A stretch of 32,000 nucleotides of DNA from an uncultured bacterium (lineage in GTDB: Bacteria > Auribacterota > JACPWU01): contig CAZXEQ010000007.1 in NCBI GenBank assembly GCA_964640155.1, positions 60,001 to 92,000 of the forward strand. The letters are read 5' to 3'. Shown one piece after another: positions 1 through 13,972 of this stretch (its first letter is position 1; each line of letters begins with the position of its first letter). Position numbers and translations under genes: made by a program. The notes under the pieces are model-generated. The model saw nothing but the letters and a program-made list of their open reading frames with translations, was not told the origin of the DNA and did not search any database.

Positions 1-2200
1 ACTTTGAAAAAAGGCCGATTAAATGAATTGCCAGAAGAGTTAAAAAATGAAGCAGCTTTGAATGAATGGAAAGATCGGCTTAAAAAAGTTCTTAAGGATG
101 AAGAGTTGGCTTCTCGTCTTACTTTCATTATTGAGCCTCTTCTCAAACAAATTCATCTTTCAGATCAGAGAAAAAATCTTAACCAGATTGCAGAACAATT
201 GGGAAATAAAGATAAGTCAACTAGGGCCAGAATAGAGGCTTTTGAAGCAAGTCTAAATCAGAGAATTACTGAAAAAGAAGCGGCTATCGAAGCTCTTAGA
301 GAATTAGAAAATAAAGGTATGGAAGCTAAGCGGCTTGCTTTTACTGCTCCTGGTGTGACCTATATTGGCATTGGAGATTTGGCTTTTGAAAAATTAGGCG
401 ATCGCGCTCGTAAACTCAGTGAGAGATTCTTCCCTCAAGGGGGCAAGAAGCTTCATAAAGCCAATGTGGATGAAGTGGATAGTGTTCTTGAGGATCAGGC
501 GTTGATGGATTATGTGATGGCGCAACCTTCAGGAGACTTAAGTGCTATAGAGAAAGAAATGTGGACTTTTGCTGGAAGTGTATCAGAAGAAATAAGACCT
601 TTTGGACTCGAGAGAAAAATAGGACTTCAAAAGGAAGAGATTCAAGCACAAGAGACAGAACAAGTTGTTGGGGCAAAGCTTACTCTTTTCACCAAGGATA
701 AAAATAACGATGTCTTAAGATTGACCAAGGCGGGCCGTCAAAGAGCCATGGACGCTTATAATGTGTTACGTCAAAAAATGATGGGACGCAAAGAACTTCC
801 TTCTATGCCGGAGTTTATCAAGATGGTTGAAAAATCATTGAAAGCTCGTGAGCTTCGAAAGAGAGGCGAAGATTATGAAATAGATGATGCCAGCGGTAGC
901 ATTCGATTGATTGAAAAAACAACAGGAGGTATCAATGATCGTCGTGATAGTGCCTTAGGTATTGCCTTGGATGTTTTGAATTCGGATCGTGTAAGGACAT
1001 TAGGTGATAATCGTACCAGTGCTAAGATCAGTGGTGGAGACGTGATTAAGGAACTTTTTGAAGGATTCAGCGGATACAGTGGATCTGTCGATACACGTGA
1101 AGCCAGAAAAGAATTTGAAAAAGGATTTGGAAAGAAGAGTACTCAATTTGTCAGAATTCCTAATTATTCTGCAAGTAAACGCAATATTCTTGCTCCGAAA
1201 ATTTTCAAAAACGATAATGCAGCACAAGCTTGGTTAGAAGAACAGGCGAGAGAAGTTATGCAGCATACGACTGCGATTATCACTTTACGAAGTGTTAAAC
1301 AAGTCGAAGATTTAGCCGCTAAAATGGAAGGGAAAAAAGAATTTAAAGGTAAAGTTCTTATTTTTAGAGGTTCAGAAAATGATGAACAAAGACGTCTGCT
1401 TTTAGCTCAAGCCAGTGAACCAGGTTATGTTTTAATACAAACTATGATCGGGGGTCGTGGAACAGACTGGGGCTTGGCTGATTTTGGATTAACAAAGGAG
1501 ATGTTGGATGAGGCTTTAAAAGGAAAGGGTCTTTCTGAAGGTTTAAGAAAAGCTCAGTTGGATCAATTAGAGGGTATAACCAAGAAATTAGCAGGAAACA
1601 CAGCTAAATTGACACCTGCTGAAGTCACTCAAGCTCGGAATATGAGTCAGACAGAGTTGCAGTCGCAGGATGATCGCTTGAACGAGCAGGTAAATTTTCT
1701 AGAAGAGTTTAATAAGACAGGCGAATCTCTTGATCAAGCCTTAGAGACGGCAAGAAAACAGAAAGGGCTGGCTGAAAAAGCTTTTAATGCTGCGTCTGCT
1801 AATGCTGCGCCTGCGGAAATTAAAGTGGAATTATCGTTAGGGCGTTGGCTTGCTTCTCGACGACTAGAGGTTTTAGAAGCACTTCAGAAATCAGGTCAGT
1901 CTGTGAATGAAGAATTAAAAAATGCAAGAGAAGCAAAAGAAAAGGCTAGCAGAAAACTTCTTGTTCGTGATTTAGAAAAGTTTTTTGAAAATCTTACAGA
2001 AGGAGCTGATGAGGCGCTTCGTAAGAAACTTGACCAAGTCTGTCAGAGAACCTTTATGAAATTTGCTTATGGTTTCTATATCATGCGCAATGTATTTCGA
2101 AGCCGTCGTGTGGATATACAAGTAGATGGCCGTGGTGCCCGACAAGCTGATCCAGGAACTTCCATTGAATTTAGTTCTTTAGAAGAAACAGGAGCTGACA
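1..2200 (+). other. SecA-type DEAD motor region of the giant protein (NBD1 C-terminal part and NBD2)
   Basis: Window versus E. coli SecA, recalled from memory. AFTAPGVTYIGIGDLAF...KLHKANVDEVDSVLEDQA (nt ~340-500) vs AYAADITYGTNNEFGFDYL...KLHYALVDEVDSILIDEA. FEGFSGYSGSVDTRE (nt ~1057-1101) vs YEKLAGMTGTADTE. VRIPNYSASKR vs VVPTNRPMIRKD. IQTMIGGRGTDWGL (1435-1476) vs ATNMAGRGTDI. FRSRRVDIQVDGRGARQADPGTSIEFSSLEE (2095-2187) vs [31 protein letters not shown]. Confidence 0.75.
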
Positions 2201-5200
2201 TTTTAGAAATTATCCAGCCCGGTTTAAGACAAGAGCAGCTGGACGGCCAGCTTCATCAGAAAGGAAAAGAGGGCCGTGATCGAATTGCAGCAAATGAAAA
2301 GAAATATGCCAAGTTCTTGAAGTTGAGAGAGGAATATCTAGATGCTTTAGATAAGTTGGAAACCATGGACGAGAAGGATAAGTCGGGTATTGCCACATTA
2401 CAAAAAGAGCTGAGCCGAATGGAACAAGAGATACAAACGATGAAAGCTGAGGCTCAGTTGAATTTGGATATCAATGATATGGATCAGCGTTTGGAAAAGG
2501 GTGATAAAAACAATGTGGGTTATCATATTTCTGAACGTCTTTCGGATGTTTTTGGAGGCATTCGTGAAGGTACATCGGATGTGACAAGTGTCACAGTGGC
2601 CAAAGCTTTGATTGAAAAAGTCATTGAAGAAGCGAAAAAATCTAAAAATCTTGCCCTTGTTCAAGAGGTTTTGAAAAATGCTTTTGACATTCGAAAGATC
2701 GAAGGCTTGTCTTTAGAGCAATTAGATCTTCTCAAAGAAGAACTCTTGAGTCAGTTGGCTCGTGGAGACATTCAATTAGATGGACAGGTTTTTGAAGAGG
2801 GCTTAAGTCAGGCAAATATGGATTTCATCGATAGACAGCAGGAAATTGAACGTGCGGAAGAAGACGTCGCCAAACTTAAAAAAGCCTTGGAAGATTATCT
2901 GGGAGAATTTACGAAGGGAGTTCAAAATAATATTGTCGATGGGCTTGTAAAGGTTTATGGACCTAAAGAAGTTGGGACAGGTGGATTAGATCTAGATGAG
3001 ATGAGTGCAGCATTTACTGATAAAATGACAGATTGGATTGGGAAGCAAACTCCTGGACCTATTGCGAGTCGTTGGATACGTTATTGGAAGACTGTCTCTA
3101 AATGGACGGCAGCAAAAAGTAAAGGCTTGAGAAGTCGGTCTGCTACTGTTGGGAACTGGATTGCTAAACATGCCCAAGTTGAAGAGCAAAGAAAATATTT
3201 TGAAAAAGCTGCTCGTGCTTGGAACAAAGCCATTGCTCGCCTTGAGAACAGAGGCGAATTGTCAGATGCATACGTTGCTATTGACCGAAAGGTAGAAACA
3301 GAGTCCATTCAGCCGATGGGATCAAATCCATCGGTACGTCAAGTGACTCAGCTTGTGAAGAAACGTGAAGCCGAGAAGCGTAAAGGTCAGGGCGTGACGA
3401 TAGACTTAGCAAAAGCCAAGGCTACGCGTCAGAAAGCAGGAACAACTGCTGGATCTCCTGAGGCTCAACAACCCAAACGACCTGAAGCTGAGACAAGATC
3501 GCTAACCACATTACAGAAATTGATTCAAACTGCAGCGGTCGATGGGAGAGTTAAAGGAACGACAAGGCTTGCTATCCCAAGTGCCGACGGAAATAAATCT
3601 CAGAGATATGACTTTGACCTTACGGCTACAACAGCTCAAGTTTTGAATAGTAATGAAGCAGCTCGCGAGGCCCTTTATAAGGCTCTTGCATCTGGTCAGC
3701 AAGGGGCAGTTAAGGTTGGAGACCGCACCCTTATTTTTGCTAAGAATGCAAGGGGCTTGGTTCAAATCGTAGATGTATCAGATCTGAAGGCGGATAGTGT
3801 TACTCAGGCTTTGACTGAGGCTCAGACAAGAAAAGATGATGTTAAATTTATCTTTGGAGCGTCTGGCCAAGTGAATATCGTTATTGCAAAACCTGGTCAG
3901 ACTTCTTTAGGTGAGAAAGTCACTTTAACGGGAAGCAATCTTTTTGTACATTCAAATATCAATGAAGGAACTGTTGGGTCAGGGAATACTTTTAGAGATT
4001 CGAATCTTTCAAATGCTCAAGTGGGCAATAATAACAGTTTCAATCGAGTAGAAGCGTCAGATGTCACGGTTGGAAATGAATCTCAATTAACCAGGGTAAA
4101 AGTAAATAGTGCTGAAGTTGGAAATGCTTCAAAATTAGAAGTGGTTTCAGCGGTAACAGTCGTTGTAGGTGAAAATTCTCAACTTAAAGATGTACGTGCG
4201 GATCGATCTGTTGTTGCGGGTGATCAAGCTCGGTTAGAAAATGTGACGGCAGAATCAATCGTCGCTGGAGATCGCTCTAGAATGAAGTCAGTGACAGGCC
4301 GCAACGTTGTTGCTCAAGAAGGTGCAGATGTTGAACTCATGAATGCTCAAGCCCTCAATGCTCCTTCCGGAGATTTGACTTTTGGGAAGAATGAAGTTAA
4401 GAGAGGTGGATATAAAGAAGGCGTTTATGAAACAACAGGAGTTTCTGACCGAACGGCTCTTATTGGGCAGATGGAGCATGTTAGAGCAACTGAAAAAGAA
4501 TTATTTGGTGAAACACCTTGGGAAACAATTAAAGGAAAACTCAAAGGTAAAGTAGACAGTCTTATTACCTTGCTTCGCAATCAAGAGCCAACGGGTAGAT
4601 TGAAATGGGGTAAAAAATTCTTAAAGTCAATTGGAACTTACTTCAAAACTTTTGATGAAAGACAAAGGGAACAATCAACTCGAGATCGTGAAAGTGAACA
4701 AAATTTAAGAGCGGATGCGGCAGCTGAAACCCTTTATCCCAATTTTTCAACACCTGCAAGTGAGGTTTATGAAGGTTTAAACAGAAATCTATTTGGCGAA
4801 GAGGAAATGACTCATGTTGGTTTTATCATGGGAACATTAAGTGAAGAAGCGATGGCAAAAGCTATTGAAAGTGGCGTTTTGGAAGAGGGAGAAGATTCGT
4901 CTCAAAGAGTTAGTCCGTCTCCTCGTGCGGTTGCAGAAGGTCTTATTGATTTTGCACAGAGAATTTTAGACTCGGCTAAGGATCAGAGCCCAGCTGATCA
5001 AGAAGTAGCTCAGAAAAAGGTAGAAGCGCTTTGGGAAGCTGCTTTAAAAGTAGATCCTCGTCATGCAAAGACTTTACTCAGAATGGCAGAAACATTGTGG
5101 ACTCGATCACAAGGGAAAAACTTGGAGGCTTCTGAGAGAGAAGAATTAAAGAAGAACTCTCTTGCGTTATATCGGTTGGCTTATCGCGAAGATCCTTCGG

Positions 5201-8200
5201 ATGCTGAAACAGTGGAATCTTATGCGAATGTTTTGATTTCTCAGAACAAATCTGCTGAAGCTATTAAAATGGCTGAACGTTTGGTGAAGGAAAATAAAAC
5301 AAGAGAAAATAAACTTCTCTTAGGAAGAATATTAATGGCTTCTGGTAAGTTTTCTGAGGCCATGAATGTTTTCAGAAAGAATGGAGTTGTCTCTAAGAAA
5401 GTGGAACAGCGTTTGACACAATTAGAAGGCAAGGCAGGCGAGTTAGCTAAAAAGAGAGCAGAATTAGCAAATTTAGATAAACCGAAAAAAGGTGGTTTCC
5501 CAGGTGGAATGTCTCCTGAAATGCTTCAGGGAATGGATCCGGAGATGCTCGGTCAGAATCCAGATCTACTTAGCCAATTGATGGGTGGAGGAGAGCAAAG
5601 GGAATCTACACCTGAAGAGAAAGCCCAGATTGCAGAGCAGAAGAAAAAGTTGGGAGAAGAAATAGAGGTTCTTAGTAAGGGAACAGAAGATTTTGGAATA
5701 ACATTAGAGGAGCTTACTTCTGCTGGTGAAAAGATATCCTCTCAAGGTTTGGCACAAATTTTAATGAAACTCTACGGAGGAAAAATATCTTTAGAAAAAG
5801 CTAAACTTTTAGCGAAGACACTTCGTGAGTTGATGAATACACATCAAGAACTTTCAAAGATGAATGTTGCCCTTCTTCTCGCTATCAATGCAGAAGATTC
5901 TGATTCAATTCCAAGTCTTAAAGCAAAGATGATGAGTCAATTAGCTACTCAAGAAAAAGACATACATACACAAAGGGTGTATGCCTTGGCGGCTGCTTTC
6001 TATAATGAACAGGCCCAAGCTATTTCCGAATTGACACGCCGTCATCCAGAATTAAAAGGTCAAGATCTTTCAAGATTCTTACCCAATATGGAAATTTCTC
6101 AAGTGACTCCTGAGGTAGAAACACCTGCTGTACCGGATCAGACTGAAGCTGCTAAACAAAGCGAGGCTTTGGTAAAAGAAATAGCGGCTCAACAGGAAAG
6201 AGTTGAAGCTCTTAAGAAAGAATCGAAAGAACCTCAAGGAAACCTCGTTGACATACTCACATTATCTGAAGAATCTCAATCCTATGACGAAGATATTAAA
6301 GCTCAGGAAGAAGTGATTAGGAATGCAAAGGCCGAGAGAGACGAAGCTCGTCGCGTACTGACACTTTATAAAATGACGAAAGCTATGGATGAAGTCCAAA
6401 CTCAAGAGCAGGTGATCAATGCATTAAACCAGAAGATTTCAGATGCTCAGAGAAAAATAGAGAATCTTAGGAAGATGTCCTTAAGTCAAAATCTTAGGAA
6501 TGAGATGAGGGCCCGGCAAGGTGATTTTGTGGCTTCCAAAACTCAAGCCGATACAGAAGAAGCAAAAGCTACTCGTGAGCGGTATCTCATTCACGTGACA
6601 AGAGAACTTCAGCAAGCAGAAGAAAAGTTAGGCTCTCTGAAATCTCAACAAAAATGGTCAAATCGTGCGACGCGTGCAACAGAGGCCGTCTTGAACTTTT
6701 CATCGGCTCTCAAAGGTAAAGCGAAGAAGGTGGTTGTGCGCTTACAGTCATTACGACAAAAGCCAAAATTGGTTCCACGTGTTACAGAACAATCACTGGA
6801 AGCTTTAAAGAAGTATTTAAATATGCAAGCGATTGCTCTAAATATCATGGAACAATTACCTGCTCCTTCAGAGCAAACAGCTAAAGATGCTTATGCCAAA
6901 ACTTCTGAAGATTTAAAAGCACAAGCTGTTGTTTGGGAAGAAGAAATGTCAGAAGTTTTGAAGGCACAGCCAGAATTGAAAGATCATTTTATAGAGTTGA
7001 TGGGTATTGATACAACGGACATTTCTTCCACTCCTGCTTACAAAGTGAAACTACTGAAACATTGGGCCGCTGCCATTAAGGAACTGGCTGAAACGATGGA
7101 TGCTAAGGACGAGAAGCGAGCAGCATATATGAAGTTGGTTGAGACCCTTGAGGCAAAAGCCAAAGTTGCGGAAGCTGAAGCGAAGAAGATCGAAGACGAA
7201 AAAGCCAAAGTCCAAGCCGCTGAAGCTGAGGCTAAGAAAGTTAAGCCTGTGAATGTAAATGAAGCTGGTGTGGAAGATCTGATGAAAGTTCAGGGAATAA
7301 CGAAGGTTTTGGCCCAGGCGATTGTTCAAGCTCGTCAACAATTGACTATCTCGGGAAAGCCGGGTCCATTCCGAAGTCTCTCAGATTTATTCTTGGTTCC
7401 CGGCTTGAGACGTTTATTTCCTATGAGCATAGATGAATTAGAAGATCGATATGCAACGATAAGTGCTCAGCTTAAAGTAGAGACAACAAAACCTGATTCT
7501 CCAGAAGTTTTAAAACAGAGACAATCTTTACAAGGCGAGCTTCAAAGACTTTCTTCTCTACATCAAAGCGTGAAGAAATTTGCTCAAAATATTACTTTTG
7601 GAGAAGAGGGTACTGTCTATTATCCTGAAACAGTAGAGCAAAGGGTGATGGAGGCCTTAGAATCAGAAATTCAACGGAGAAGTGTTCCACATTTGGAATT
7701 CCTTCGTAATGAGTTAGCTAGAATTAAGGCTGAAAAAGTACGATGTCTTAAAGAAACTTCAAATTCTGATGTTAAAGCGCGTAAGACTGCTTTGAATGAA
7801 TATGCTGAATTGGAAAAAGAAGAGAAGCGCTATATTGCATTGGAGAAGAAACTACAGAGTAAGACCCTTTCGGAAGTGATAGAAGTTGTAACTCAGCTCG
7901 AATTAAATCCTTTGATGAAAGCTTATAGTAAAATTTTAATGCAGTTGGCAAAATTAGGTGAGAGCAATCTTACAGTTCAAGAACATGCGAAACGCTATGA
8001 AGCTTTAAGAAGAGATATGGTTAAGCTTAATCGGCAGTTTTCAGATTTATCTGTACAAACTGATCAGGTAAAAAATGTAATGGAAAGTCTAAAGAATTAT
8101 ACAAGTCAGATGACCGATTATCTTCTTGTAGCTCGGCGCGTCAATCGTGTTTCATCTTTAGCTGAAAATCTTCGAAGGCAGTTCAATGAAAATGAAGGGA

Positions 8201-9180
8201 CTTATGGCGTTTCAAATTTCTTTGAAAATGCAGCAAGATTTGTGAGAGCTGAGTTGACGCGTGAATATGGGAATTCAGAAGATACAACGATTGACCACTT
8301 AGGAGACTTGTATCTTTTAGTTTTTGAGTATCATTCATTGAGTGATCAGCAAAAGGAAGCTTTGGGAAATATTGCGAGGAACATTGATAATCCTGATGTG
8401 AGAAGTGGAATGGTGCAAGTCCTAGAAATTATGAAAGGTACTATTTCACTACAGAATGGGCAATTGGGAAGCCTTAAAGCTTTATTAGGACAGTTTTTTA
8501 AACAGCTTCCTAAAGCTTTAGAAATTAAAATTCTAGAAAATGTGATTCAAAGATATGAAAATATTTTAGCCAAAAACACCAGTAATATAGAGGTGAAAAC
8601 AATATTAGGTCTCTTATATGCTTCCCAAATTCAATCAGGGGTTACTTTAAATTTGGAAACTTTACTAAAAGTGAAAGGTTATCTTGAAGAAAGTTTAGTT
8701 GCAGACGCTCAAAATGCGGAGAAGATCTCTGCATTGAAAGAAGTGAGACTTCAAATTCAAAAAGAACTTGTTAGACAAGCTAAAGCGATGGCAGACAAAC
8801 CTGAAAATGCTGCTAATGCAGATGAGTATACGGATAGAGTTTTGGATATTCAAAATTGGCTTCGGGCATATCATCAAAATTTAGATTCTGCTGAGCAAGA
8901 AGCTTTAGAGAAAGAATTAAGAAATCAATTGCCCAAAGAAGCTGTGGATAAAGCGCGTGAAACATTGTTTGTAGATGGTTTAATGAAGCTTGCCAAATCT
9001 GGGAAGCCATTGACTTTAAGAGCAGTGGGCCCCGTGTTAGCCCCGCTCTTTGGCCCTGTTGCGCGTATCATTCGTGATGGTTGGGTCGACATTGATCAAC
9101 CTGTTCATTCTCCTTCTACTCCTCTTCCAAAGAAAGTATCCAATCCTTCCTCTGGAATCGATCATAGCCGATCGACGTAA
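1..9180 (+). CDS. Giant SecA-like ATPase fusion protein, 5'-truncated by the window edge (>3059 aa). SecA-type motor followed by ~2350 aa of coiled coil, solenoid repeats, TPR-like repeats and a ComEA-like HhH module
   Basis: Single open frame of 9177+ nt with no stop until TAA at 9178-9180. SecA-like motifs appear in the canonical order (see finding). The Walker A region expected ~100 aa before DEVDS is not in the window, so the gene continues upstream and the TTG at nt 4 is probably not the start. Confidence 0.85.
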   Translation, partial: TLKKGRLNELPEELKNEAALNEWKDRLKKVLKDEELASRLTFIIEPLLKQIHLSDQRKNLNQIAEQLGNKDKSTRARIEAFEASLNQRITEKEAAIEALRELENKGMEAKRLAFTAPGVTYIGIGDLAFEKLGDRARKLSERFFPQGGKKLHKANVDEVDSVLEDQALMDYVMAQPSGDLSAIEKEMWTFAGSVSEEIRPFGLERKIGLQKEEIQAQETEQVVGAKLTLFTKDKNNDVLRLTKAGRQRAMDAYNVLRQKMMGRKELPSMPEFIKMVEKSLKARELRKRGEDYEIDDASGSIRLIEKTTGGINDRRDSALGIALDVLNSDRVRTLGDNRTSAKISGGDVIKELFEGFSGYSGSVDTREARKEFEKGFGKKSTQFVRIPNYSASKRNILAPKIFKNDNAAQAWLEEQAREVMQHTTAIITLRSVKQVEDLAAKMEGKKEFKGKVLIFRGSENDEQRRLLLAQASEPGYVLIQTMIGGRGTDWGLADFGLTKEMLDEALKGKGLSEGLRKAQLDQLEGITKKLAGNTAKLTPAEVTQARNMSQTELQSQDDRLNEQVNFLEEFNKTGESLDQALETARKQKGLAEKAFNAASANAAPAEIKVELSLGRWLASRRLEVLEALQKSGQSVNEELKNAREAKEKASRKLLVRDLEKFFENLTEGADEALRKKLDQVCQRTFMKFAYGFYIMRNVFRSRRVDIQVDGRGARQADPGTSIEFSSLEETGADILEIIQPGLRQEQLDGQLHQKGKEGRDRIAANEKKYAKFLKLREEYLDALDKLETMDEKDKSGIATLQKELSRMEQEIQTMKAEAQLNLDINDMDQRLEKGDKNNVGYHISERLSDVFGGIREGTSDVTSVTVAKALIEKVIEEAKKSKNLALVQEVLKNAFDIRKIEGLSLEQLDLLKEELLSQLARGDIQLDGQVFEEGLSQANMDFIDRQQEIERAEEDVAKLKKALEDYLGEFTKGVQNNIVDGLVKVYGPKEVGTGGLDLDEMSAAFTDKMTDWIGKQTPGPIASRWIRYWKTVSKWTAAKSKGLRSRSATVGNWIAKHAQVEEQRKYFEKAARAWNKAIARLENRGELSDAYVAIDRKVETESIQPMGSNPSVRQVTQLVKKREAEKRKGQGVTIDLAKAKATRQKAGTTAGSPEAQQPKRPEAETRSLTTLQKLIQTAAVDGRVKGTTRLAIPSADGNKSQRYDFDLTATTAQVLNSNEAAREALYKALASGQQGAVKVGDRTLIFAKNARGLVQIVDVSDLKADSVTQALTEAQTRKDDVKFIFGASGQVNIVIAKPGQTSLGEKVTLTGSNLFVHSNINEGTVGSGNTFRDSNLSNAQVGNNNSFNRVEASDVTVGNESQLTRVKVNSAEVGNASKLEVVSAVTVVVGENSQLKDVRADRSVVAGDQARLENVTAESIVAGDRSRMKSVTGRNVVAQEGADVELMNAQALNAPSGDLTFGKNEVKRGGYKEGVYETTGVSDRTALIGQMEHVRATEKELFGETPWETIKGKLKGKVDSLITLLRNQEPTGRLKWGKKFLKSIGTYFKTFDERQREQSTRDRESEQNLRADAAAETLYPNFSTPASEVYEGLNRNLFGEEEMTHVGFIMGTLSEEAMAKAIESGVLEEGEDSSQRVSPSPRAVAEGLIDFAQRILDSAKDQSPADQEVAQKKVEALWEAALKVDPRHAKTLLRMAETLWTRSQGKNLEASEREELKKNSLALYRLAYREDPSDAETVESYANVLISQNKSAEAIKMAERLVKENKTRENKLLLGRILMASGKFSEAMNVFRKNGVVSKKVEQRLTQLEGKAGELAKKRAELANLDKPKKGGFPGGMSPEMLQGMDPEMLGQNPDLLSQLMGGGEQRESTPEEKAQIAEQKKKLGEEIEVLSKGTEDFGITLEELTSAGEKISSQGLAQILMKLYGGKISLEKAKLLAKTLRELMNTHQELSKMNVALLLAINAEDSDSIPSLKAKMMSQLATQEKDIHTQRVYALAAAFYNEQAQAISELTRRHPELKGQDLSRFLPNMEISQVTPEVETPAVPDQTEAAKQSEALVKEIAAQQERVEALKKESKEPQGNLVDILTLSEESQSYDEDIKAQEEVIRNAKAERDEARRVLTLYKMTKAMDEVQTQEQVINALNQKISDAQRKIENLRKMSLSQNLRNEMRARQGDFVASKTQADTEEAKATRERYLIHVTRELQQAEEKLGSLKSQQKWSNRATRATEAVLNFSSALKGKAKKVVVRLQSLRQKPKLVPRVTEQSLEALKKYLNMQAIALNIMEQLPAPSEQTAKDAYAKTSEDLKAQAVVWEEEMSEVLKAQPELKDHFIELMGIDTTDISSTPAYKVKLLKHWAAAIKELAETMDAKDEKRAAYMKLVETLEAKAKVAEAEAKKIEDEKAKVQAAEAEAKKVKPVNVNEAGVEDLMKVQGITKVLAQAIVQARQQLTISGKPGPFRSLSDLFLVPGLRRLFPMSIDELEDRYATISAQLKVETTKPDSPEVLKQRQSLQGELQRLSSLHQSVKKFAQNITFGEEGTVYYPETVEQRVMEALESEIQRRSVPHLEFLRNELARIKAEKVRCLKETSNSDVKARKTALNEYAELEKEEKRYIALEKKLQSKTLSEVIEVVTQLELNPLMKAYSKILMQLAKLGESNLTVQEHAKRYEALRRDMVKLNRQFSDLSVQTDQVKNVMESLKNYTSQMTDYLLVARRVNRVSSLAENLRRQFNENEGTYGVSNFFENAARFVRAELTREYGNSEDTTIDHLGDLYLLVFEYHSLSDQQKEALGNIARNIDNPDVRSGMVQVLEIMKGTISLQNGQLGSLKALLGQFFKQLPKALEIKILENVIQRYENILAKNTSNIEVKTILGLLYASQIQSGVTLNLETLLKVKGYLEESLVADAQNAEKISALKEVRLQIQKELVRQAKAMADKPENAANADEYTDRVLDIQNWLRAYHQNLDSAEQEALEKELRNQLPKEAVDKARETLFVDGLMKLAKSGKPLTLRAVGPVLAPLFGPVARIIRDGWVDIDQPVHSPSTPLPKKVSNPSSGIDHSRST
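3925..4356 (+). repeat. Nine tandem 16-residue (48-nt) protein repeats, consensus V-G-x-x-S-x-L-x-x-V-x-x-x-x-x-V; predicted beta-solenoid
   Basis: Exact 16-aa register read from the translation: LTGSNLFVHSNINEGT / VGSGNTFRDSNLSNAQ / VGNNNSFNRVEASDVT / VGNESQLTRVKVNSAE / VGNASKLEVVSAVTVV / VGENSQLKDVRADRSV / VAGDQARLENVTAESI / VAGDRSRMKSVTGRNV / VAQEGADVELMNAQAL. The repeats are divergent at DNA level. Confidence 0.7.
5026..5385 (+). other. TPR-like helical repeat region inside the giant protein
   Basis: ~34-aa helical units with an A/L/Y pattern, e.g. ALYRLAYREDPSDAETVESYANVLISQNKSAEAIKMAERLV and LLLGRILMASGKFSEAMNVFRKN. Judged by eye only. Confidence 0.45.
7249..7404 (+). other. ComEA-like helix-hairpin-helix (HhH) DNA-binding module inside the giant protein
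   Basis: VNVNEAGVEDLMKVQGITKVLAQAIVQARQQLTISGKPGPFRSLSDLFLVPGL fits the ComEA C-terminal pattern (I/V)N(I/V)N.A..E.L..(L/V).GI....A..I...R...G.F.S..DL..V.G(I/L). Confidence 0.6.
8914..9180 (+). repeat. Direct repeat DR1: last 89 codons of the giant gene, in frame; left boundary of the TA insertion
   Basis: Aligns with 11662-11930 with 16 substitutions and one 2-nt indel (C4 run versus C6 run). Similarity starts abruptly at 8914/11662 and stops exactly at the stop codons. Confidence 0.95.
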
Positions 9181-9288
9181 AAAACAGTAATTCGTAGTTC
9201 GTGAAGCGTAGTTCGCAAAAATAAAATACCAATACCCTTTCCTCCGGTTAGCCAGTTGACCAGTTTTTTTTGATGTTTTTTTCTTTGG

Positions 9289-9327
9289 TTGACAAGCGTA
9301 TCTAAATGGGATATACATAGTATATCC
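9289..9327 (+). promoter_or_regulatory. Putative mazEF-like promoter with overlapping palindromic operator
   Basis: TTGACA (9289-9294), 17-nt spacer, TATACA (9312-9317). Perfect inverted repeat GGATATAC-ata-GTATATCC (9309-9327) overlaps the -10. RBS GAGGAGG at 9331-9337 precedes the ATG at 9348. Confidence 0.5.
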
Positions 9328-9347
9328 AGTGAGGAGGTGTCTGTCGT

Positions 9348-9596
9348 ATGGTTACCAGAGTTCAGAAATGGGGAAATAGCCAGGGTCTTCGTGTTAGCAA
9401 AGAGATACTGGAAAAGGTTCATATTGCTATTGGAGACATGGTAGATATTAGAGTTCAAAAGGATTGTATTCTTATTCAGCCCGTTCATCAGGTGCGTGGG
9501 AAATACAGTTTGCGAGATCTCGTACGTCAAATGCCTAAAGGTTATAAGCCGGGTCGGGAAGCATGGAGTGAACCTATTGGTAAGGAAGTTTGGTAA
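9348..9596 (+). CDS. mazE: MazE/AbrB-SpoVT family antitoxin
   Basis: 82 aa. N-terminus MVTRVQKWGNSQGLRVSKEIL has the MazE/AbrB swapped-hairpin signature (KWGNS..(L/V)R(I/V)). Strong RBS. Stop TAA abuts the toxin ATG. Confidence 0.85.
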   Translation: MVTRVQKWGNSQGLRVSKEILEKVHIAIGDMVDIRVQKDCILIQPVHQVRGKYSLRDLVRQMPKGYKPGREAWSEPIGKEVW

Positions 9597-9932
9597 ATGT
9601 TGAACTATGTACCTCATAAAGGGGATTTGGTCATACTGACATTTGATCCTCAAGCGGGTCATGAACAGAAAGGACGAAGACCCGCACTGATTGTAAGTAA
9701 TAATTTGTTTAATCAATCTACGGGTTTTGCCATTGCTTGTCCCATTACAAACACGGATCGTAAAATCCCATTTCATGTAAAAATCCATCCATCTTCTTCA
9801 CTCACAGGTTTCGTGATGGTAGACCAGGTTAAATCGATAGATTATCGAACCAGACAGGTCAAATATGTTGAACGAGCCCCTGTAGCATTGTTAGAGGAAG
9901 TATTAAGTATTTTAGATGCCAGTCTTTTTTAA
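9597..9932 (+). CDS. mazF: MazF/PemK family endoribonuclease toxin
   Basis: 111 aa. YVPHKGDLVILTFDPQAGHEQKGRRPALIVSNNLFNQSTGFAIACPITN... parallels E. coli MazF/ChpB (YVPDMGDLIWVDFDP..GSEQAGHRPAVVLS...). Typical antitoxin-then-toxin order. Confidence 0.9.
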   Translation: MLNYVPHKGDLVILTFDPQAGHEQKGRRPALIVSNNLFNQSTGFAIACPITNTDRKIPFHVKIHPSSSLTGFVMVDQVKSIDYRTRQVKYVERAPVALLEEVLSILDASLF

Positions 9933-9953
9933 AATGATTTCTTTTCTATGAAA

Positions 9954-9977
9954 GTGGGAAGTTCTAAGGTTTCCCGC
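9954..9977. terminator. Weak bidirectional hairpin between the convergent mazF and abiEii genes
   Basis: GTGGGAA (9954-9960) pairs with TTCCCGC (9971-9977), 7 bp including one G:U, with a 10-nt loop. No strong U-tract on either strand. Confidence 0.3.
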
Positions 9978-10014
9978 TTGAGCAATATTCATTTATTCTT
10001 CTTAGCGTTAGCCT

Positions 10015-10929
10015 TTAACCCCATGGACCAGAATTTTTCCATTCTTGATCAAAATTTTTATTTTGATCAATTGCCTTAATGGGCTTCAGAAGAAATTTTT
10101 CAATTGCCTCGGCAACATCTTTAAGCTTGTCCGGAACATTTTTGATTTTTCCCTTTGTCAGAAAAGCTTTCCAAAGCATTTGACGATCAGAGCTCTCGTC
10201 ATAAATTTGTTCAGCAAAAAGTGGAGATTTTGTAGGAATTACTGTCTTTCGATGGGTAAAAGTTTTTTTGAGAGCTTCTACAAGAGTCTGACCTTTGAAA
10301 TGAAATTGCTGAGCCATGAGCCAAAGATCATAAAAATCTTTCATTCTGCTATTAAGAAGTCCAAGCTTTATCATAGATTCAAATTTTTCAGCGACAACAC
10401 TTTCTTGCGGGTATCCTTTTAAATGTGGTTTTGGAAAATCTAAAATTACAGGATAATCAATCACTATAGATTTAGGATAAATCATATCTCCAAATCCAAA
10501 GTCTATTTGCATCGATATTCGTGAACGCTCAAGAAAACCTTTAAACTTAATTCTCACACCTTCGTAGTCTGCATCCTCTTTGATTTTTTGCCCTTTGATA
10601 GTGTTAGGATCATATACAAGACCATCTGATATGACATTAACTCTACAAATCTTTTTAACTACTTCTTCAATCTTGTTTACTTGATTGTCATAATGGGCAA
10701 GGAAATCAATGTCCAATGTTGCTCGTCTTTCAGGCACTTGCCATACTGTAAACATCAATGCCCCTTTTAGAATGAATTTATTGGCATATTCAGATTGACT
10801 GAGTCGATAGAGGAAGCGCTCCATCGCATAATATTGAAGGATCTCTGCAAAGGGTCGATTTAATTCTATTGCTTTATTCTGAATTCTATTTCGAACGGAT
10901 GCTTCAATATTTTTAATTTTTTGCGTCAC
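10015..10929 (-). CDS. AbiEii/AbiGii-family nucleotidyltransferase toxin (DUF1814, type IV TA)
   Basis: The family-typical motif RATLDIDF follows GALMF..W. The size fits the family. The ORF track start is 10974. I prefer GTG at 10929 because it gives VTQKIKNIEASVRNR..., a typical family N-terminus, and a 4-nt GTGA overlap with the abiEi stop. Confidence 0.8.
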   Translation of the reverse strand: MTQKIKNIEASVRNRIQNKAIELNRPFAEILQYYAMERFLYRLSQSEYANKFILKGALMFTVWQVPERRATLDIDFLAHYDNQVNKIEEVVKKICRVNVISDGLVYDPNTIKGQKIKEDADYEGVRIKFKGFLERSRISMQIDFGFGDMIYPKSIVIDYPVILDFPKPHLKGYPQESVVAEKFESMIKLGLLNSRMKDFYDLWLMAQQFHFKGQTLVEALKKTFTHRKTVIPTKSPLFAEQIYDESSDRQMLWKAFLTKGKIKNVPDKLKDVAEAIEKFLLKPIKAIDQNKNFDQEWKNSGPWG

Positions 10930-11528
10930 AATATTGTCTCCAAAAGTGGTTTGATAATATTTGCAACACGGCAAATATCAGCATAGAACATAATTTCCTT
11001 GGGAGATATACCTTTTTCAAGAACCGCTGTTTTAAGGGCGTCTCGTGCAATATTGATTCCTATTTTATTTCTAAACTTAAAGCAATCAGCCACAGTTTTA
11101 GCCACATTATAAACCTTCACCTTATAACCATCTATTTCTTGCTCTACAATTCCAGCGTTCCAAGTTTCTTTGGAAAAATGATAGTAATGAACAGGAGGAT
11201 AATTAATTTTATTGGCATGGTTCCCTTGTGGTATAGCAAGATCTATGAGCCTTGGTATCTCACTGGTTACTTCATGAAATGCCAGGGCAGAGAGTAGACA
11301 AATCACTCCTTTAGGAGATTTCATTGAAACCATAATAAGATCAGGATTGGATAGGGAAGTGCTCATCGTAAGTTTATACAGAGCACGATCTATTTTCTGA
11401 ATTTGTTTCAAATGCAGTAGGACTTTAAGATCAGATTTGTTAAAACCTGTATGGATAATGTCAGAGTATGTAGCTAGTCCTCTCCTCTTTTTGAAAAAGT
11501 TAATCAAACGCTCTCTTTTAGAGATCAT
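10926..11528 (-). CDS. AbiEi-family antitoxin / transcriptional regulator (type IV TA)
   Basis: 200 aa. The N-terminal winged-helix-like segment (...LATYSDIIHTGFNKSDLKVLLHLKQIQKIDRALYKL) resembles the AbiEi_4 domain. It lies immediately upstream of, and overlaps, the DUF1814 toxin gene. Confidence 0.8.
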   Translation of the reverse strand: MISKRERLINFFKKRRGLATYSDIIHTGFNKSDLKVLLHLKQIQKIDRALYKLTMSTSLSNPDLIMVSMKSPKGVICLLSALAFHEVTSEIPRLIDLAIPQGNHANKINYPPVHYYHFSKETWNAGIVEQEIDGYKVKVYNVAKTVADCFKFRNKIGINIARDALKTAVLEKGISPKEIMFYADICRVANIIKPLLETIL

Positions 11529-11536
11529 AGAGTTTT

Positions 11537-11590
11537 CCCTATTTATATATACTTGTTATTAAGTATATATAAATAGGGATGCTATGTCAA
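11537..11590 (-). promoter_or_regulatory. abiE promoter with a perfect 18-bp inverted-repeat operator
   Basis: On the minus strand: TTGACA (11590-11585), 17-nt spacer, TATACT (11567-11562). Perfect palindrome CCCTATTTATATATACTT (11537-11554), 6-nt spacer, AAGTATATATAAATAGGG (11561-11578). It covers the -10 and the start region, 9 nt upstream of the abiEi ATG. Confidence 0.6.
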
Positions 11591-11661
11591 ACCAATCAAA
11601 TTTGGTGTTAATAGTAGTAGCAGTAGTAGTAGGGTCAGGCCTTGCAATCACACATTAAGAG

Positions 11662-11930
11662 GAATTACGAAATCAATTGCCCAAAGAAGCTGTGGATAAA
11701 GCACGTGAGACATTGTTTGTGGATGGTTTAATGAAACTTGCTAAATCTAGGAAACCATTTACCTTAAGAGAAGTGGGCCCCCCGTGTTAGCCCCGCTCTT
11801 TGGCCCTGTTGCGCGTATCATTCGTGATGGTTGGGTCGACATTGATCAACCCGTTCATTCTCCTTCTACTCCTCTTCCAAAGAAAGTGGCCAGTCCTTCC
11901 TCTGGAATCGATCATAGCCGATCGACATAA
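11662..11930 (+). pseudogene. DR2: displaced, frameshifted copy of the giant gene's 3' end (last 89 codons)
   Basis: ~94% identical to 8914-9180. There is no upstream ORF, and an in-frame TAA lies at 11656-11658. A C6 run (versus C4 in DR1) shifts the frame and gives ...REVGPPC-stop. Confidence 0.85.
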
Positions 11931-11978
11931 TCGGCTTACCTTGCAGCTGGCTGTGACCTATTTCCCTCCTTAAATCTA

Positions 11979-12011: not shown

Positions 12012-12476
12012 ATGTGTGGGCGGCGTTTACCTCAAGCTGGATTTACTCTCGTCGAAATCCTTTCGATTTTACTGATTATTTCTGTCGTTATAGCCATTGT
12101 TATTCCTATTGCAAAAACATCTTTTGATAAGATGAGAATTCATCAAACCCAAGCAGATATTGCGGCTTTAGAATCAGCTTTGGAGGGATATAAATCAGCT
12201 AACGGGCAATATCCAGATGCCAGTCCGGCTAGTAGAGTACCAGTGAGTGCATTAAGCACTTATATGAAATTTCCTGCGAAAAGAGTCATTTCAAATATTT
12301 TTTATGATTCATGGAATGTCCCTTATCGTTATGCCAGGCCAGGGACGAATAATACTGCCTTTGTAGATTTGGCTTCAGCAGGACCTGATCGAGCTATTGA
12401 TGATTCGACTTGGCAGACAAGTACGTCGTCTGGGAATAATGCGGATAATATTGATAATTGGAGTCAAAAGAGATGA
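12012..12476 (+). CDS. GspG-like type II secretion / type IV pilin-like pseudopilin
   Basis: Prepilin leader and methylation motif QAG|FTLVEILSILLIISVVIAIVIP with Glu at +5. The C-terminal motif DSWNVPYRY...AGPD...ADNIDNW parallels GspG DPWGNPY.Y...G.DG...DI.NW. Confidence 0.85.
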   Translation: MCGRRLPQAGFTLVEILSILLIISVVIAIVIPIAKTSFDKMRIHQTQADIAALESALEGYKSANGQYPDASPASRVPVSALSTYMKFPAKRVISNIFYDSWNVPYRYARPGTNNTAFVDLASAGPDRAIDDSTWQTSTSSGNNADNIDNWSQKR

Positions 12477-13027
12477 AAATGGATAGGGGAGTTAAAAATG
12501 CCTATACACTTGTTGAAGTACTCATTGTGGCTTCTATTATTGGTGTTCTTGCGAGTTTCTTACTCAATGCAGCTATTAATAGTCGTAAGAAAGCCAATTT
12601 AACTAAAACACATGCCTTATTAGAATCTATCAGTGCGGCTCTCAGAATGTATCAAGATGATTTTGGTACTTATCCTCCTCAAAACGTGATTTATCGTTAT
12701 GGAACTCAGATTGCTGCTTCATCCGCAGATTGTCTTTATTATTATTTAGGCGCAACTTTTAAAAGAGGGGTGAATGCGTCTATTTTTGCAGGCCCTTATA
12801 TGAAATTTACGGGAGATGAACTTCAAACGACTCAAGTTTCTGCTTGTGATTTTGATGGGGATGGCGCTATTGACGATGATTTAAAAAGAATTTTAGATCC
12901 ATGGGGACAGGCCTTGCGATTTCGTAGTTCACCTACTCAAAATCTTTCAAGTTTCGATCTTTATTCCTTAGGGCCTGATAAGACGAATAATAGTGGATCA
13001 GGAGACGATATTAATAATTGGGAATAA
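12473..13027 (+). CDS. Second GspG-like pseudopilin
   Basis: MKMDRGVKNA|YTLVEVLIVASIIGVLASFLL (Ala instead of Gly at -1, Glu at +5). C-terminus DPWGQALRF...LGPDK...GDDINNW. The ATG at 12473 overlaps the upstream stop (ATGA), so I prefer it to the track's TTG at 12458. Confidence 0.8.
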   Translation: MKMDRGVKNAYTLVEVLIVASIIGVLASFLLNAAINSRKKANLTKTHALLESISAALRMYQDDFGTYPPQNVIYRYGTQIAASSADCLYYYLGATFKRGVNASIFAGPYMKFTGDELQTTQVSACDFDGDGAIDDDLKRILDPWGQALRFRSSPTQNLSSFDLYSLGPDKTNNSGSGDDINNWE

Positions 13028-13298: not shown

Positions 13299-13371
13299 TG
13301 CGCCATGCAGGGATCGAACCTGCGACCCACTGATTAAGAGTCAGTTGCTCTACCAACTGAGCTAATGGCGC
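13299..13371 (-). tRNA. tRNA-Lys (anticodon CTT)
   Basis: The reverse complement folds as a cloverleaf: GCGCCAT TA GCTC AGTTGGTA GAGC A ACTGA CTCTTAA TCAGT GGGTC GCAGG TTCGATC CCTGC ATGGCGC A. 73 nt, no encoded CCA. Confidence 0.95.
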
Positions 13372-13450
13372 TTTAAATTAAGTCGAAATAATAGCAGGTC
13401 GCCTTCTAAATAGGTAGTCAAAATTTTATCTTTTTTGATACCATCTTATC

Positions 13451-13480
13451 TTGCATTACTTCTCCATCTTGTCTTATATT
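13451..13480 (+). promoter_or_regulatory. Putative promoter of tRNA-Leu
   Basis: TTGCAT (13451-13456), 18-nt spacer, TATATT (13475-13480), 14 nt before the tRNA 5' end. Confidence 0.5.
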
Positions 13481-13493
13481 GTACGTTCTTTAT

Positions 13494-13575
13494 GCCGCGG
13501 TGGCGGAACTGGCAGACGCGTAGGATTTAGGATCCTATGCCGTAAGGCGTGTGGGTTCAAGTCCCTCCCGCGGCA
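13494..13575 (+). tRNA. tRNA-Leu (anticodon TAG), class II with long variable arm
   Basis: GCCGCGG..GCG GAACTGGCAGA CGC G TAGGA TTTAGGA TCCTA TGCCGTAAGGCGT GTGGG TTCAAGT CCCTC CCGCGGC A. 82 nt, no encoded CCA. The T-stem has one T:T mismatch (positions 50:64). Confidence 0.9.
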
Positions 13576-13634
13576 AGGAATTGGAATAAGAATTTTTTGA
13601 AAAGAAAGCTCACAGACTTTTGGTTCTTTACGTT

Positions 13635-13762
13635 GGGACTTGAAGGGAGCCCCGACACTTTAATGATGCACATCTGCCAGCGGCCGATGTGCGACGTTTA
13701 GTTGGGGCGGGTGGCCGACCGGAGTCCCAAAGGGACGGAGGCGCCAAGTCCCTCCCGCGGCA
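13635..13762 (+). other. tRNA-appended GC-rich module B (downstream of tRNA-Leu); ends with an 18-nt copy of the tRNA-Leu 3' end
   Basis: GGGACTTGAA (13635-13644), complementary to the tRNA-Leu T-loop TTCAAGTCCC. Then GGGAGCCCCGAC, a hairpin (13668-13692), GTTGGGGC, the 17-mer CGGGTGGCCGACCGGAG (13708-13724), hairpin GTCCC-aaa-GGGAC and CGGAGGCGC. It ends with CAAGTCCCTCCCGCGGCA (13745-13762), identical to 13558-13575. Confidence 0.85.
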
Positions 13763-13785
13763 GAATTTGTGGATTAAATGTTCAG

Positions 13786-13825
13786 TCCTCGCTTCACTTG
13801 AAGAGAGGATGGGATTAAGTTTTTG
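13786..13825 (+). terminator. Possible intrinsic terminator after module B
   Basis: Hairpin TCCTC-g-CTTC actt GAAG-a-GAGGA (13786-13809). A T5 run begins at 13820, displaced about 10 nt from the stem. Confidence 0.35.
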
Positions 13826-13831
13826 AAAATG

Positions 13832-13859
13832 TTGTAAATTCTTAAATACACGCTATAAT
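13832..13859 (+). promoter_or_regulatory. Putative promoter of tRNA-Gly
   Basis: TTGTAA (13832-13837), 16-nt spacer, TATAAT (13854-13859). Confidence 0.5.
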
Positions 13860-13897
13860 TATGCCTCATTTTAGAATTTAGGTTTTTGATTTAGAAA

Positions 13898-13972
13898 GCG
13901 GCGGTAATTCAGGGGTAGAATGCCTGCTTGCCAAGCAGGATGTCGTGGGTTCAAATCCCATCCGCCGCTCCA
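13898..13972 (+). tRNA. tRNA-Gly (anticodon GCC), CCA encoded
   Basis: GCGGCGG TA ATTC AGGGGTA GAAT G CCTGC TTGCCAA GCAGG ATGTC GTGGG TTCAAAT CCCAT CCGCCGC T CCA. Confidence 0.95.

Follow-up and report, generated by a model that had tools for sequence, protein, structure and literature searches.

SecA belongs to the SF2 helicase superfamily, and the canonical protein is a stand-alone ATPase of about 800-1,000 residues whose two-helix-finger tip pushes substrate into SecY. In this study we describe a SecA-type ATPase module embedded in a giant protein, the 3' part of whose gene occupies the first 9,180 nucleotides of a 32,000-nucleotide stretch of DNA from an uncultured bacterium (NCBI assembly GCA_964640155.1, contig CAZXEQ010000007.1, positions 60,001 to 92,000 of the forward strand; hereafter the window).

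SecA-like domains have been reported in giant proteins before. According to West-Roberts et al. (2023; bioRxiv 10.1101/2023.11.21.568195), most Omnitrophota and some Actinobacteriota giant proteins carry divergent SecA_DEAD and preprotein-binding domains that fall on long branches. These proteins have numerous transmembrane regions and were reported to lack scaffold/wing domains; loci resembling the type II secretion system (T2SS) adjoin their genes, with T2SS-like and class-III-signal-peptide genes reported beside those of Omnitrophota, and it was proposed that the SecA-like domains export the giant protein itself. A later preprint of 2026 (bioRxiv 10.64898/2026.06.07.730766) recognised a 20-protein PF07517 architecture cluster among the long proteins of Omnitrophota. 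Secondary SecA_DEAD proteins without a Pfam-detectable SecA_SW domain have also been described in Planctomycetes, Verrucomicrobia and others, their genes lying in a conserved locus with three type-I-secretion-related genes (Kamneva et al., 2015; PMC4452313), and Zhang et al. (2012; PMC3482391) mention effectors of the amoeba symbiont Amoebophilus asiaticus with SecA-like helicase-related domains.

The first-pass annotation of the window, which was made from the sequence alone, did not recognise the architecture of the giant protein, but this architecture had already been described in the two preprints on giant proteins. Like the proteins of West-Roberts et al., the window protein is encoded by a very long open reading frame (ORF), has divergent SecA_DEAD and preprotein-binding domains that fall outside canonical SecA, and shows no Pfam-detectable scaffold/wing region; it may also share with them the presence of pilin-like genes nearby, here two pseudopilin genes, which are also kept in a relative that does not have the giant gene. 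It differs in that transmembrane regions are not visible, in that coiled-coil insertions split both of its nucleotide-binding domains (NBD1 and NBD2), in that its C-terminal 2,100 residues are unrelated to those of other members, and in its host lineage, which is mentioned in neither preprint. The other two likenesses are by description. As in the proteins of Kamneva et al., we see an extra SecA_DEAD protein without Pfam-detectable SecA_SW in a bacterium of the Planctomycetes-Verrucomicrobia-Chlamydiae (PVC) type, and no type-I-secretion-like neighbours of the kind found there occur downstream of the giant gene in the window. With the Amoebophilus effectors the window protein shares a SecA-like ATPase domain within large multidomain proteins, there of a eukaryote-interacting bacterium. 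We conclude that the architecture is already known, and that the window protein adds a member from a lineage outside those papers, with split NBDs, no visible transmembrane helices and a unique C-terminal half.

The giant ORF contains a module derived from SecA

Frame 1 of the forward strand has no stop codon between nucleotide 1 and the TAA at 9178-9180; its 3,059 codons and stop (1-9180) represent the 3' part of the giant gene, the 5' end being cut by the window edge. All features of the protein described below lie on this strand, and residues are numbered from the first visible codon. It can be seen that the frame does indeed remain open for some 7 kb past the motor signatures, as had been noted at first pass. 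The codon usage of the giant gene is that of housekeeping genes elsewhere in the window (relative synonymous codon usage, r 0.89-0.93; GC content at third codon positions 0.29-0.30), and its GC content (0.35-0.45) and GC skew likewise match those genes and are uniform over all 9.2 kb. The giant gene is therefore native and compositionally uniform. A peptide scan of genome and metagenome contigs with residues 1-800 gave no match.

The four motifs on which the SecA assignment had been based are present at exactly the positions given for them, namely VDEVDS at 466-483, GYSGSVDTRE at 1072-1101, IQTMIGGRGTDWGL at 1435-1476 and FRSRRVDIQVDGRGARQADPGTS at 2095-2163. Of the Pfam models that were suggested for checking this assignment, SecA_DEAD matched residues 107-223 above its cut-off (27.3 bits against 24.6) and SecA_PP_bind (PF01043) matched residues 229-315 at 22.4 bits, slightly below its cut-off of 23.5. 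P-loop_SecA also passed, over residues 685-729 (28.3 bits, cut-off 27). No match in the window protein was found to SecA_SW (PF07516), nor to the SEC-C zinc-binding tail (PF02810), which is present in nearly all of the canonical SecA database matches. The NCBI SecA model NF006630 scored 54.3 bits against a cut-off of 862.

When the window protein was compared with PDB sequences using phmmer, only SecA and SecA2 chains were returned (E 2.5e-13 to 1e-6, the best ones between 2.5e-13 and 2e-12), and the alignments were colinear, with window residues 108-492 matching E. coli SecA 156-507 and residues 690-730 covering motif VI. A profile of the window protein and its giant relatives matched canonical SecA with an E-value of 1.9e-69. 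A word-index protein search found only canonical SecAs, at 22-26% identity, even with giant sequences in the query alignment. We also modelled residues 100-1000 with AlphaFold, supplying a canonical SecA alignment as input. The model has a mean predicted local distance difference test score (pLDDT) of 63 and is confident in the preprotein cross-linking domain (PPXD), NBD2 and the inserted helices; all 35 of its top 35 Foldseek matches in the PDB were SecA or SecA2. This structure prediction, which had also been suggested at first pass, thus agrees with SecA and SecA2 folds, although the evidence is partly circular because the model was built with a SecA alignment.

The homology to SecA is distant yet significant, far beyond chance, and we hold the identity of the module as SecA-derived, together with its placement in the giant family, with high confidence. 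That it is not the housekeeping translocase, as had been proposed, is borne out by the score of 54 bits against 862, by the identity to canonical SecA of at most 26%, by its position outside the canonical cluster of the tree described below and by the fact that its best relatives are modules in giant ORFs. Domain order is that of canonical SecA (NBD1, PPXD, NBD2, then the helical scaffold and helical wing domains), and motifs Ib, II, III, V and VI are colinear. The differences are the low identity (22-26%), the setting within more than 3,000 residues, the two large insertions, the arginine to aspartate change in motif VI, and the absence of both the two-helix-finger tip and the SEC-C tail. Like the SecA2 proteins of Gram-positives and mycobacteria, the module is a divergent additional paralogue of SecA whose C-terminus is reduced, but SecA2 proteins are stand-alone and about 780 residues long. 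Clostridioides difficile SecA2 was nominally the best PDB match (E 2.5e-13, compared with 2e-12 for E. coli SecA); as this is no better than the E. coli score there is no specific SecA2 affinity. No secY2 or accessory secretion genes were found in the 23 kb downstream within the window.

A probably complete but divergent SecA core, split by two insertions

The part of the module that precedes the window was read by proxy from the closest relative, L008 (QCWB01000014.1; 33% identity), in which the frame is open through all 3,934 codons of the locus. Residues 17-504 of the window protein align to residues 3334-3850 of L008. In L008 the perfect Walker A motif IGTGQGKT (residue 3054) and motif Ia VQFLTTSDFAQND are followed by a coiled-coil insertion of about 330 residues, and the two motifs stand some 260 residues before the point that is aligned to the window start. 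The expectation that Walker A lies upstream of the window is therefore supported by proxy, while the upstream part of the window gene itself is unseen. Since Walker A of L008 is about 260 residues upstream and lies inside an ORF of at least 3,934 residues, the full-length window protein probably exceeds 6,000 residues, and going by this relative several thousand more codons may precede Walker A. L008 also encodes a second P-loop/DEAD-like module, at residues ~1470-2010. The contig carrying L008 has been binned as an archaeon, 'Nitrososphaera sp. WS208'. To our knowledge archaea lack SecA, and for this reason L008 is probably a misbinned bacterial contig.

The first ~730 residues of the window protein had been taken as the motor. 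The motifs are in canonical order, as described, but the limits of the module are different: it spans at least residues 108 to ~985, and residues 1-107 are an insertion. The latter residues (nucleotides 1-321) are coiled-coil-like and contain neither a P-loop nor motif Ia; because the alignment puts them inside the ~330-residue insertion of L008, we take them as the distal portion of a coiled coil inserted into NBD1, with motif Ia (upstream of the window) on one side of the insertion and motif Ib on the other. The C-terminal half of NBD1 follows at residues 108-230 (322-690), with motif Ib VTYIGIGDLAF and the Walker B motif VDEVDS (residues 156-161), in which D157, E158 and D160 are invariant in the family; it is covered by Pfam SecA_DEAD and aligns to E. 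coli SecA from residue 156. The PPXD occupies residues ~229-345 (685-1035), as judged from the SecA_PP_bind match of 22.4 bits, the colinear PDB alignments and a model pLDDT of 73-89, and SecA_PP_bind passes its cut-off in the relatives P0242 and P0244. The chain then returns to NBD1, with motif III GYSGS (residues 358-362, nucleotides 1072-1086), and continues through NBD2 to motif V GGRGTD (residues 484-489), the alignments and a model pLDDT of 75-91 defining this segment as residues 346-494 (1036-1482).

NBD2 is itself split between motifs V and VI by a helical coiled-coil insertion of about 195 residues (495-689; nucleotides 1483-2067), which stands at the position of the variable (VAR) loop of SecA, appears as a gap against canonical SecA and is modelled as long helices with pLDDT 83-94. 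Motif VI, SRRVDIQVDGRGARQADPG (residues 701-719), and a linker make up residues 690-740 (2068-2220), within the reach of the P-loop_SecA match over residues 685-729. Motif VI keeps three of its four arginines, which are conserved in the family and align with R566, R574 and R577 of the canonical SecA P0051, and Walker B DEVD, motif III SGS and motif V GRGTD are intact and conserved across the family.

The last part of the module, residues 741-985 (2221-2955), is a divergent helical region resembling the scaffold, wing and IRA1 of SecA, and it is because this region is detectable by profile comparison that the module can be said to reach residue ~985. Using hhalign, a post-motor profile of the window protein and five giant relatives matched canonical SecA columns 546-821 (probability 98.8%, E 5.6e-17), and when motif VI was left out it still matched columns 616-821, comprising the long scaffold helix, the wing and IRA1 (probability 95.7%, E 9.5e-9). 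SecA_SW passes its Pfam cut-off in the complete Omnitrophota relative L010/P0244. West-Roberts et al. (2023) reported the scaffold/wing to be absent, whereas our profile comparison finds it in divergent form; for the class as a whole this would be a small correction, the SecA core being apparently complete and its scaffold/wing present but missed by Pfam. We conclude that the module is probably a complete SecA core, consisting of NBD1, PPXD, NBD2 and a scaffold/wing of divergent sequence, into which two long coiled coils are inserted, and that both NBDs tolerate coiled-coil insertions of hundreds of residues.

Related modules lie inside giant ORFs of several phyla

An exhaustive HMMER search gave better matches than the word-index search, comprising a 504-residue fragment, P0241 (E 1.6e-48, 33% identity), and giant proteins of 4,733 (P0242), 3,155, 5,111 and 7,567 (P0265) residues that have the SecA-like region deep inside. 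Further giant ORFs came from GTDB species genomes and from metagenomes, which were pattern-scanned using the family alignment. These ORFs comprise three loci from metagenome-assembled genomes (MAGs) of Omnitrophota, which are L009 (at least 4,640 residues), L010 (complete at 5,111 residues) and the fragment L012, one from a MAG of Planctomycetia (L011, at least 5,136 residues) and three on metagenome contigs, which are L013 and L014 (at least 6,924 residues) and L015 (Ga0210003_1001613; at least 3,766 residues). The Omnitrophota and Planctomycetia ORFs are 27% identical to the window protein (E 4e-26 to 9e-22). We did note that L015, which aligns to the window motor with a tblastn E-value of 9e-20, has no Pfam match at E <= 0.001; standard domain annotation fails to detect some members of the family.

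Walker A and motif Ia are present in P0242, P0243, P0244 and P0265, and wherever the N-terminal side of a giant relative can be seen, GxGxGKT is kept. All giant relatives with a readable motif VI (P0242, P0243, P0244/L010, L009 and L011) lack its first arginine, which is mostly replaced by aspartate, by tyrosine in P0242 and by glutamate in L009.

Placement of the motor on a SecA phylogeny had been proposed at first pass, and was done with a crude neighbour-joining tree on Kimura distances, for which some pairs are saturated. Canonical SecAs form one tight cluster in this tree and the giant modules, the window motor among them, stand outside it on long branches and in two groups. The window protein joins L008 with 83% bootstrap support, and monophyly of all giants is unsupported, at 16%. 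We conclude that the family spans Omnitrophota, Planctomycetia and the host lineage of the window, and the giant SecA-like class is thereby extended to a poorly known lineage of the PVC type.

The searches also brought up compact, complete SecAs of about 720 residues with all four Pfam SecA domains, on metagenome contigs L017-L022 and IMG/VR contigs L023-L026 (GC 0.29-0.36). Four of these contigs, of 80-190 kb, are catalogued as viral, and they represent either cellular DNA that was misclassified or large phages or plasmids with a secA gene.

The C-terminal half is built of lineage-specific modules

After the motor come about 2,100 residues of lineage-specific modules, consisting of coiled coils, a beta-solenoid of 16-residue repeats, tetratricopeptide repeats (TPR) and a ComEA-like helix-hairpin-helix (HhH) domain. 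All four kinds of module had been named in the first-pass annotation and each was detected, the HhH domain by Pfam, the TPR by weak Pfam matches and the model, the solenoid by its repeats and the coiled coil by long helices in the models and heptad-like segments. Conservation with P0242 crosses the end of the motor and extends to residue ~950. PDB sequence searches with residues 1001-3059 gave matches to TPR and HhH proteins only, and PHROGs gave no match for the window protein.

The solenoid consists of eight 16-residue repeats (VGxxSxLxxVxxxxxx) at residues 1325-1452 (3973-4356), with an autocorrelation of 0.40 at lag 16 and regular short strands modelled with moderate confidence (pLDDT 65-74). 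We considered a bactofilin or hexapeptide identity for it and rejected this, as no Pfam model matched. TPR-like helical repeats cover residues ~1649-1799 (4945-5397), where weak Pfam TPR/ANAPC3 matches coincide with a model of pLDDT 70-90 whose Foldseek matches were consensus TPR proteins and OGT. They are followed at residues 1831-1865 (5491-5595) by a Gly/Met/Pro-rich stretch, GGFPGGMSPEMLQGMDPEMLGQNPDLLSQLMGGG, which matches no Pfam model and which we take to resemble the STI1/DP motifs of eukaryotic co-chaperones. The HhH domain is of the ComEA type (HhH_3, PF12836; E 1.1e-10, 41.8 bits against a cut-off of 27) and lies at residues 2415-2469 (7243-7407), where weak NCBIfam comEA matches were also found. 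The region after it is helical, and ends in a tail (residues 2919-3059; 8755-9177) that is similar to the tail of a 730-residue protein of a related MAG.

Amphipathic helices rich in Trp, Lys and Arg were seen at residues 1018-1040, 1064-1082 and 1534-1552 (nucleotides ~3052-4656), with a hydrophobic moment of up to 0.70 (99th percentile 0.58), and P0242 has a true transmembrane helix at the position aligned to residues 1018-1040. The three helices may be in-plane membrane anchors.

Possible roles of the module

Our favoured explanation is that the window encodes a native giant protein of the class described above, in which an embedded and fast-evolving SecA-type ATPase module works as a polypeptide clamp or translocation motor, and we judge the chances of this to be evenly balanced. 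The module would bind and hydrolyse ATP, would clamp and move polypeptide, and would serve the export or handling of the giant protein or of its partners while taking no part in general secretion. That it is an active ATPase acting on polypeptide is our best guess from the sequence, and export or handling, whether of the giant protein or of partners, is offered tentatively as a mechanism that may well prove otherwise. The explanation is supported by retention of the PPXD, which is the SecA-specific polypeptide-binding domain, and by the nearest relatives all being giant ORFs. Ancestral adjacency to pseudopilin genes fits an envelope-related role, and may parallel the T2SS-like and class-III-signal-peptide genes beside the Omnitrophota giants.

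A number of observations weigh against it. In the motor, the first arginine of the canonical motif VI RGRxGRQGDPG is changed to aspartate, which is the sole systematic change among the visible motifs, the tip of the two-helix finger is deleted, and neither Walker A nor the N-terminus falls inside the window. No transmembrane helix was found in the 3,059 residues (maximum 19-residue Kyte-Doolittle mean 1.4), nor in the 3,934 visible residues of L008, whereas the Omnitrophota and Planctomycetia members have several. The 3,059 residues likewise show neither a signal peptide nor an adhesin domain, and the first-pass idea of a motor anchoring a filamentous or adhesive protein is not upheld. When residues 741-3059 were compared with the other giants by phmmer nothing significant was found past residue ~950, and the TPR and HhH modules of the C-terminal half are typical of soluble proteins and weigh against simple self-export. 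The giant gene is also absent from the corresponding locus of the syntenic MAG L005, the ClpX of which is 83% identical and where a 730-residue protein is found instead.

The explanation that survives best alongside ours is that the protein is a soluble mega-scaffold or a secreted effector without a membrane anchor, its module serving not in self-export but as an unfoldase or remodeller of other proteins, either in the cytoplasm or inside the cells of a host or prey. The lack of transmembrane segments here and in L008 would fit this, as would the TPR, the STI1-like motif and the HhH domain, which are typical soluble interaction modules. The NCBI label of the lineage is Chlamydiae, and SecA-like helicase-related domains are carried by Amoebophilus effectors according to Zhang et al. 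(2012). However, JACPWU01, to which the nearest genome is assigned, is a lineage from groundwater whose genomes measure 2.2-2.5 Mb, and an intracellular way of life is therefore not established; the N-terminus, which is where type III signals are sited, lies outside the window, and other members of the family are membrane proteins. We consider this explanation possible but unlikely. With rather less likelihood, the window protein and L008 could form a transmembrane-free subgroup, in which a soluble protein of more than 6,000 residues with two SF2/SecA-type motors, a ComEA-like DNA-binding domain, TPR and solenoid arms, encoded beside pseudopilin genes, would be a new kind of ATP-driven machine for polypeptide or DNA outside the Sec pathway and not a self-exporting surface protein. 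The existence of one subgroup without a membrane anchor in its visible stretches argues against self-export as a universal role.

An ATPase-dead relic, in which the SecA fold has only a structural or binding role left within a giant scaffold, would account for the arginine to aspartate change in motif VI, the change of motif III from TGT to SGS, the loss of the two-helix-finger tip and the large insertions in both NBDs, and Walker A is not visible in the window. We think this improbable. Walker B DEVD, motif V GRGTD and the motif VI arginines equivalent to R566, R574 and R577 of P0051 are kept, and L008 keeps Walker A and motif Ia. Moreover the change to aspartate is common to all giants except P0242 (tyrosine) and L009 (glutamate), and since the giants otherwise keep GxGxGKT it looks like a family trait under selection and not like decay.

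Still less probable, in our view, is a nucleic-acid motor, that is, an SF2-type ATPase that would bind or take up DNA together with the ComEA-like HhH domain and the pseudopilins encoded nearby. The HhH_3 match (E 1.1e-10), the two pseudopilin genes a little downstream, the membership of SecA in the SF2 helicase superfamily and the second DEAD-like module upstream in L008 all speak for it, but the HhH domain is confined to this lineage, none of the other family members that were examined having it, the parts conserved family-wide (PPXD and scaffold) are the protein-handling parts of SecA, and the pseudopilins are also found in the syntenic relative that does not have the giant gene. An artefact, in which a normal secA was joined to downstream genes by misassembly or a frameshift, can be dismissed as highly improbable, for although the contig is metagenome-assembled, a 222-nucleotide repeat at the 3' end of the gene could confuse assemblers and the giant protein is missing from the protein database while ClpX of the same contig is present, the module is at most 26% identical to any canonical SecA and has the family-specific motif VI, native codon usage and GC are uniform over all 9.2 kb, conservation with P0242 runs past the end of the motor to residue ~950, and the same architecture recurs in independent assemblies of other phyla, including the complete ORF of 5,111 residues.

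The compact conserved core (the motor to residue ~985) offers a tractable construct for ATPase and substrate-clamp assays.

Host lineage and genes downstream of the giant ORF

The ClpX encoded in the window is 83-84% identical to ClpX of MAGs that are labelled 'Chlamydiae bacterium' at NCBI. One MAG, GCA_016196885.1 (JACPWU01; L005), is syntenic with the window from the pseudopilin genes through tig-clpP-clpX onward, and it gives its name to the GTDB placeholder phylum JACPWU01, which comprises groundwater bacteria with genomes of 2.2-2.5 Mb. The host is thus a PVC-type lineage, labelled Chlamydiae at NCBI and probably belonging to phylum JACPWU01 in GTDB, and an intracellular chlamydial lifestyle should not be assumed for it. 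The contig of another relative, whose ClpX shows 92% identity, stops short of the region of the giant gene. The 730-residue protein of L005 (L005:1-1053) is encoded at the upstream limit of the syntenic block, four genes ahead of the pseudopilins and roughly at the position that the giant gene has in the window. Only its C-terminal ~125 residues match the giant protein, at window positions 8755-9117 (28% identity over 127 residues, pairwise E 7e-7 by tblastn and blastp), which suggests a conserved tail module common to the two proteins.

Downstream of the giant gene lie two toxin-antitoxin pairs, the pseudopilin genes, three tRNAs and housekeeping operons. The two overlapping pseudopilin genes (12012-13027, forward strand) are of the T2SS-G type, with Pfam T2SSG and N_methyl matches and N-terminal methylation motifs, and the same pair is kept in L005. 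If the toxin-antitoxin island is left out they lie 81 nucleotides 3' of the giant gene on the same strand. No GspD, GspE or GspF gene was found within the window.

A repeat of ~222 nucleotides is present at 8960-9182, where it includes the 3' end and stop codon of the giant gene, and again at 11708-11931, the copies being 2.75 kb apart and 93-97% identical; the frame of the second copy is broken by a 2-nucleotide insertion. Between the two copies lie the toxin-antitoxin genes, with no integrase visible, and an island of 2.5 kb has therefore apparently been inserted at the 3' end of the giant gene, with duplication of its last ~74 codons. A Logan contig of short reads extends over 9444-11698 only, which is between the repeats. 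Exact matches to MazF, AbiEi and ClpX were found only on short Logan contigs from SRR8893623, none of which extends to the giant gene. The first toxin-antitoxin pair (9348-9932, forward strand) encodes a MazE-like protein of 82 residues and a MazF/PemK protein of 111, and the second (10015-11528, reverse strand) an AbiEii nucleotidyltransferase toxin of 319 residues and an AbiEi-like partner of 200 residues that has no Pfam match. Both pairs are absent from L005. An ORF of 208 residues (9162-9788, reverse strand), antisense to mazEF and the end of the giant gene, matches no family and is very probably not a gene. Upstream of the AbiEi-like gene a promoter-like site lies within 11536-11590 (reverse strand), TTGACA-17-TATACT, with 11 of 12 consensus matches, and it is overlapped by a perfect 19-nucleotide inverted repeat (11536-11554 and 11561-11579) that looks like a putative autoregulatory operator.

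Beyond the pseudopilins, a tRNA cluster at 13299-13972 encodes tRNA-Lys(CTT) on the reverse strand and tRNA-Leu(TAG) and tRNA-Gly(GCC) on the forward strand, and it is kept at 81-97% identity in the MAGs L005 and L006.

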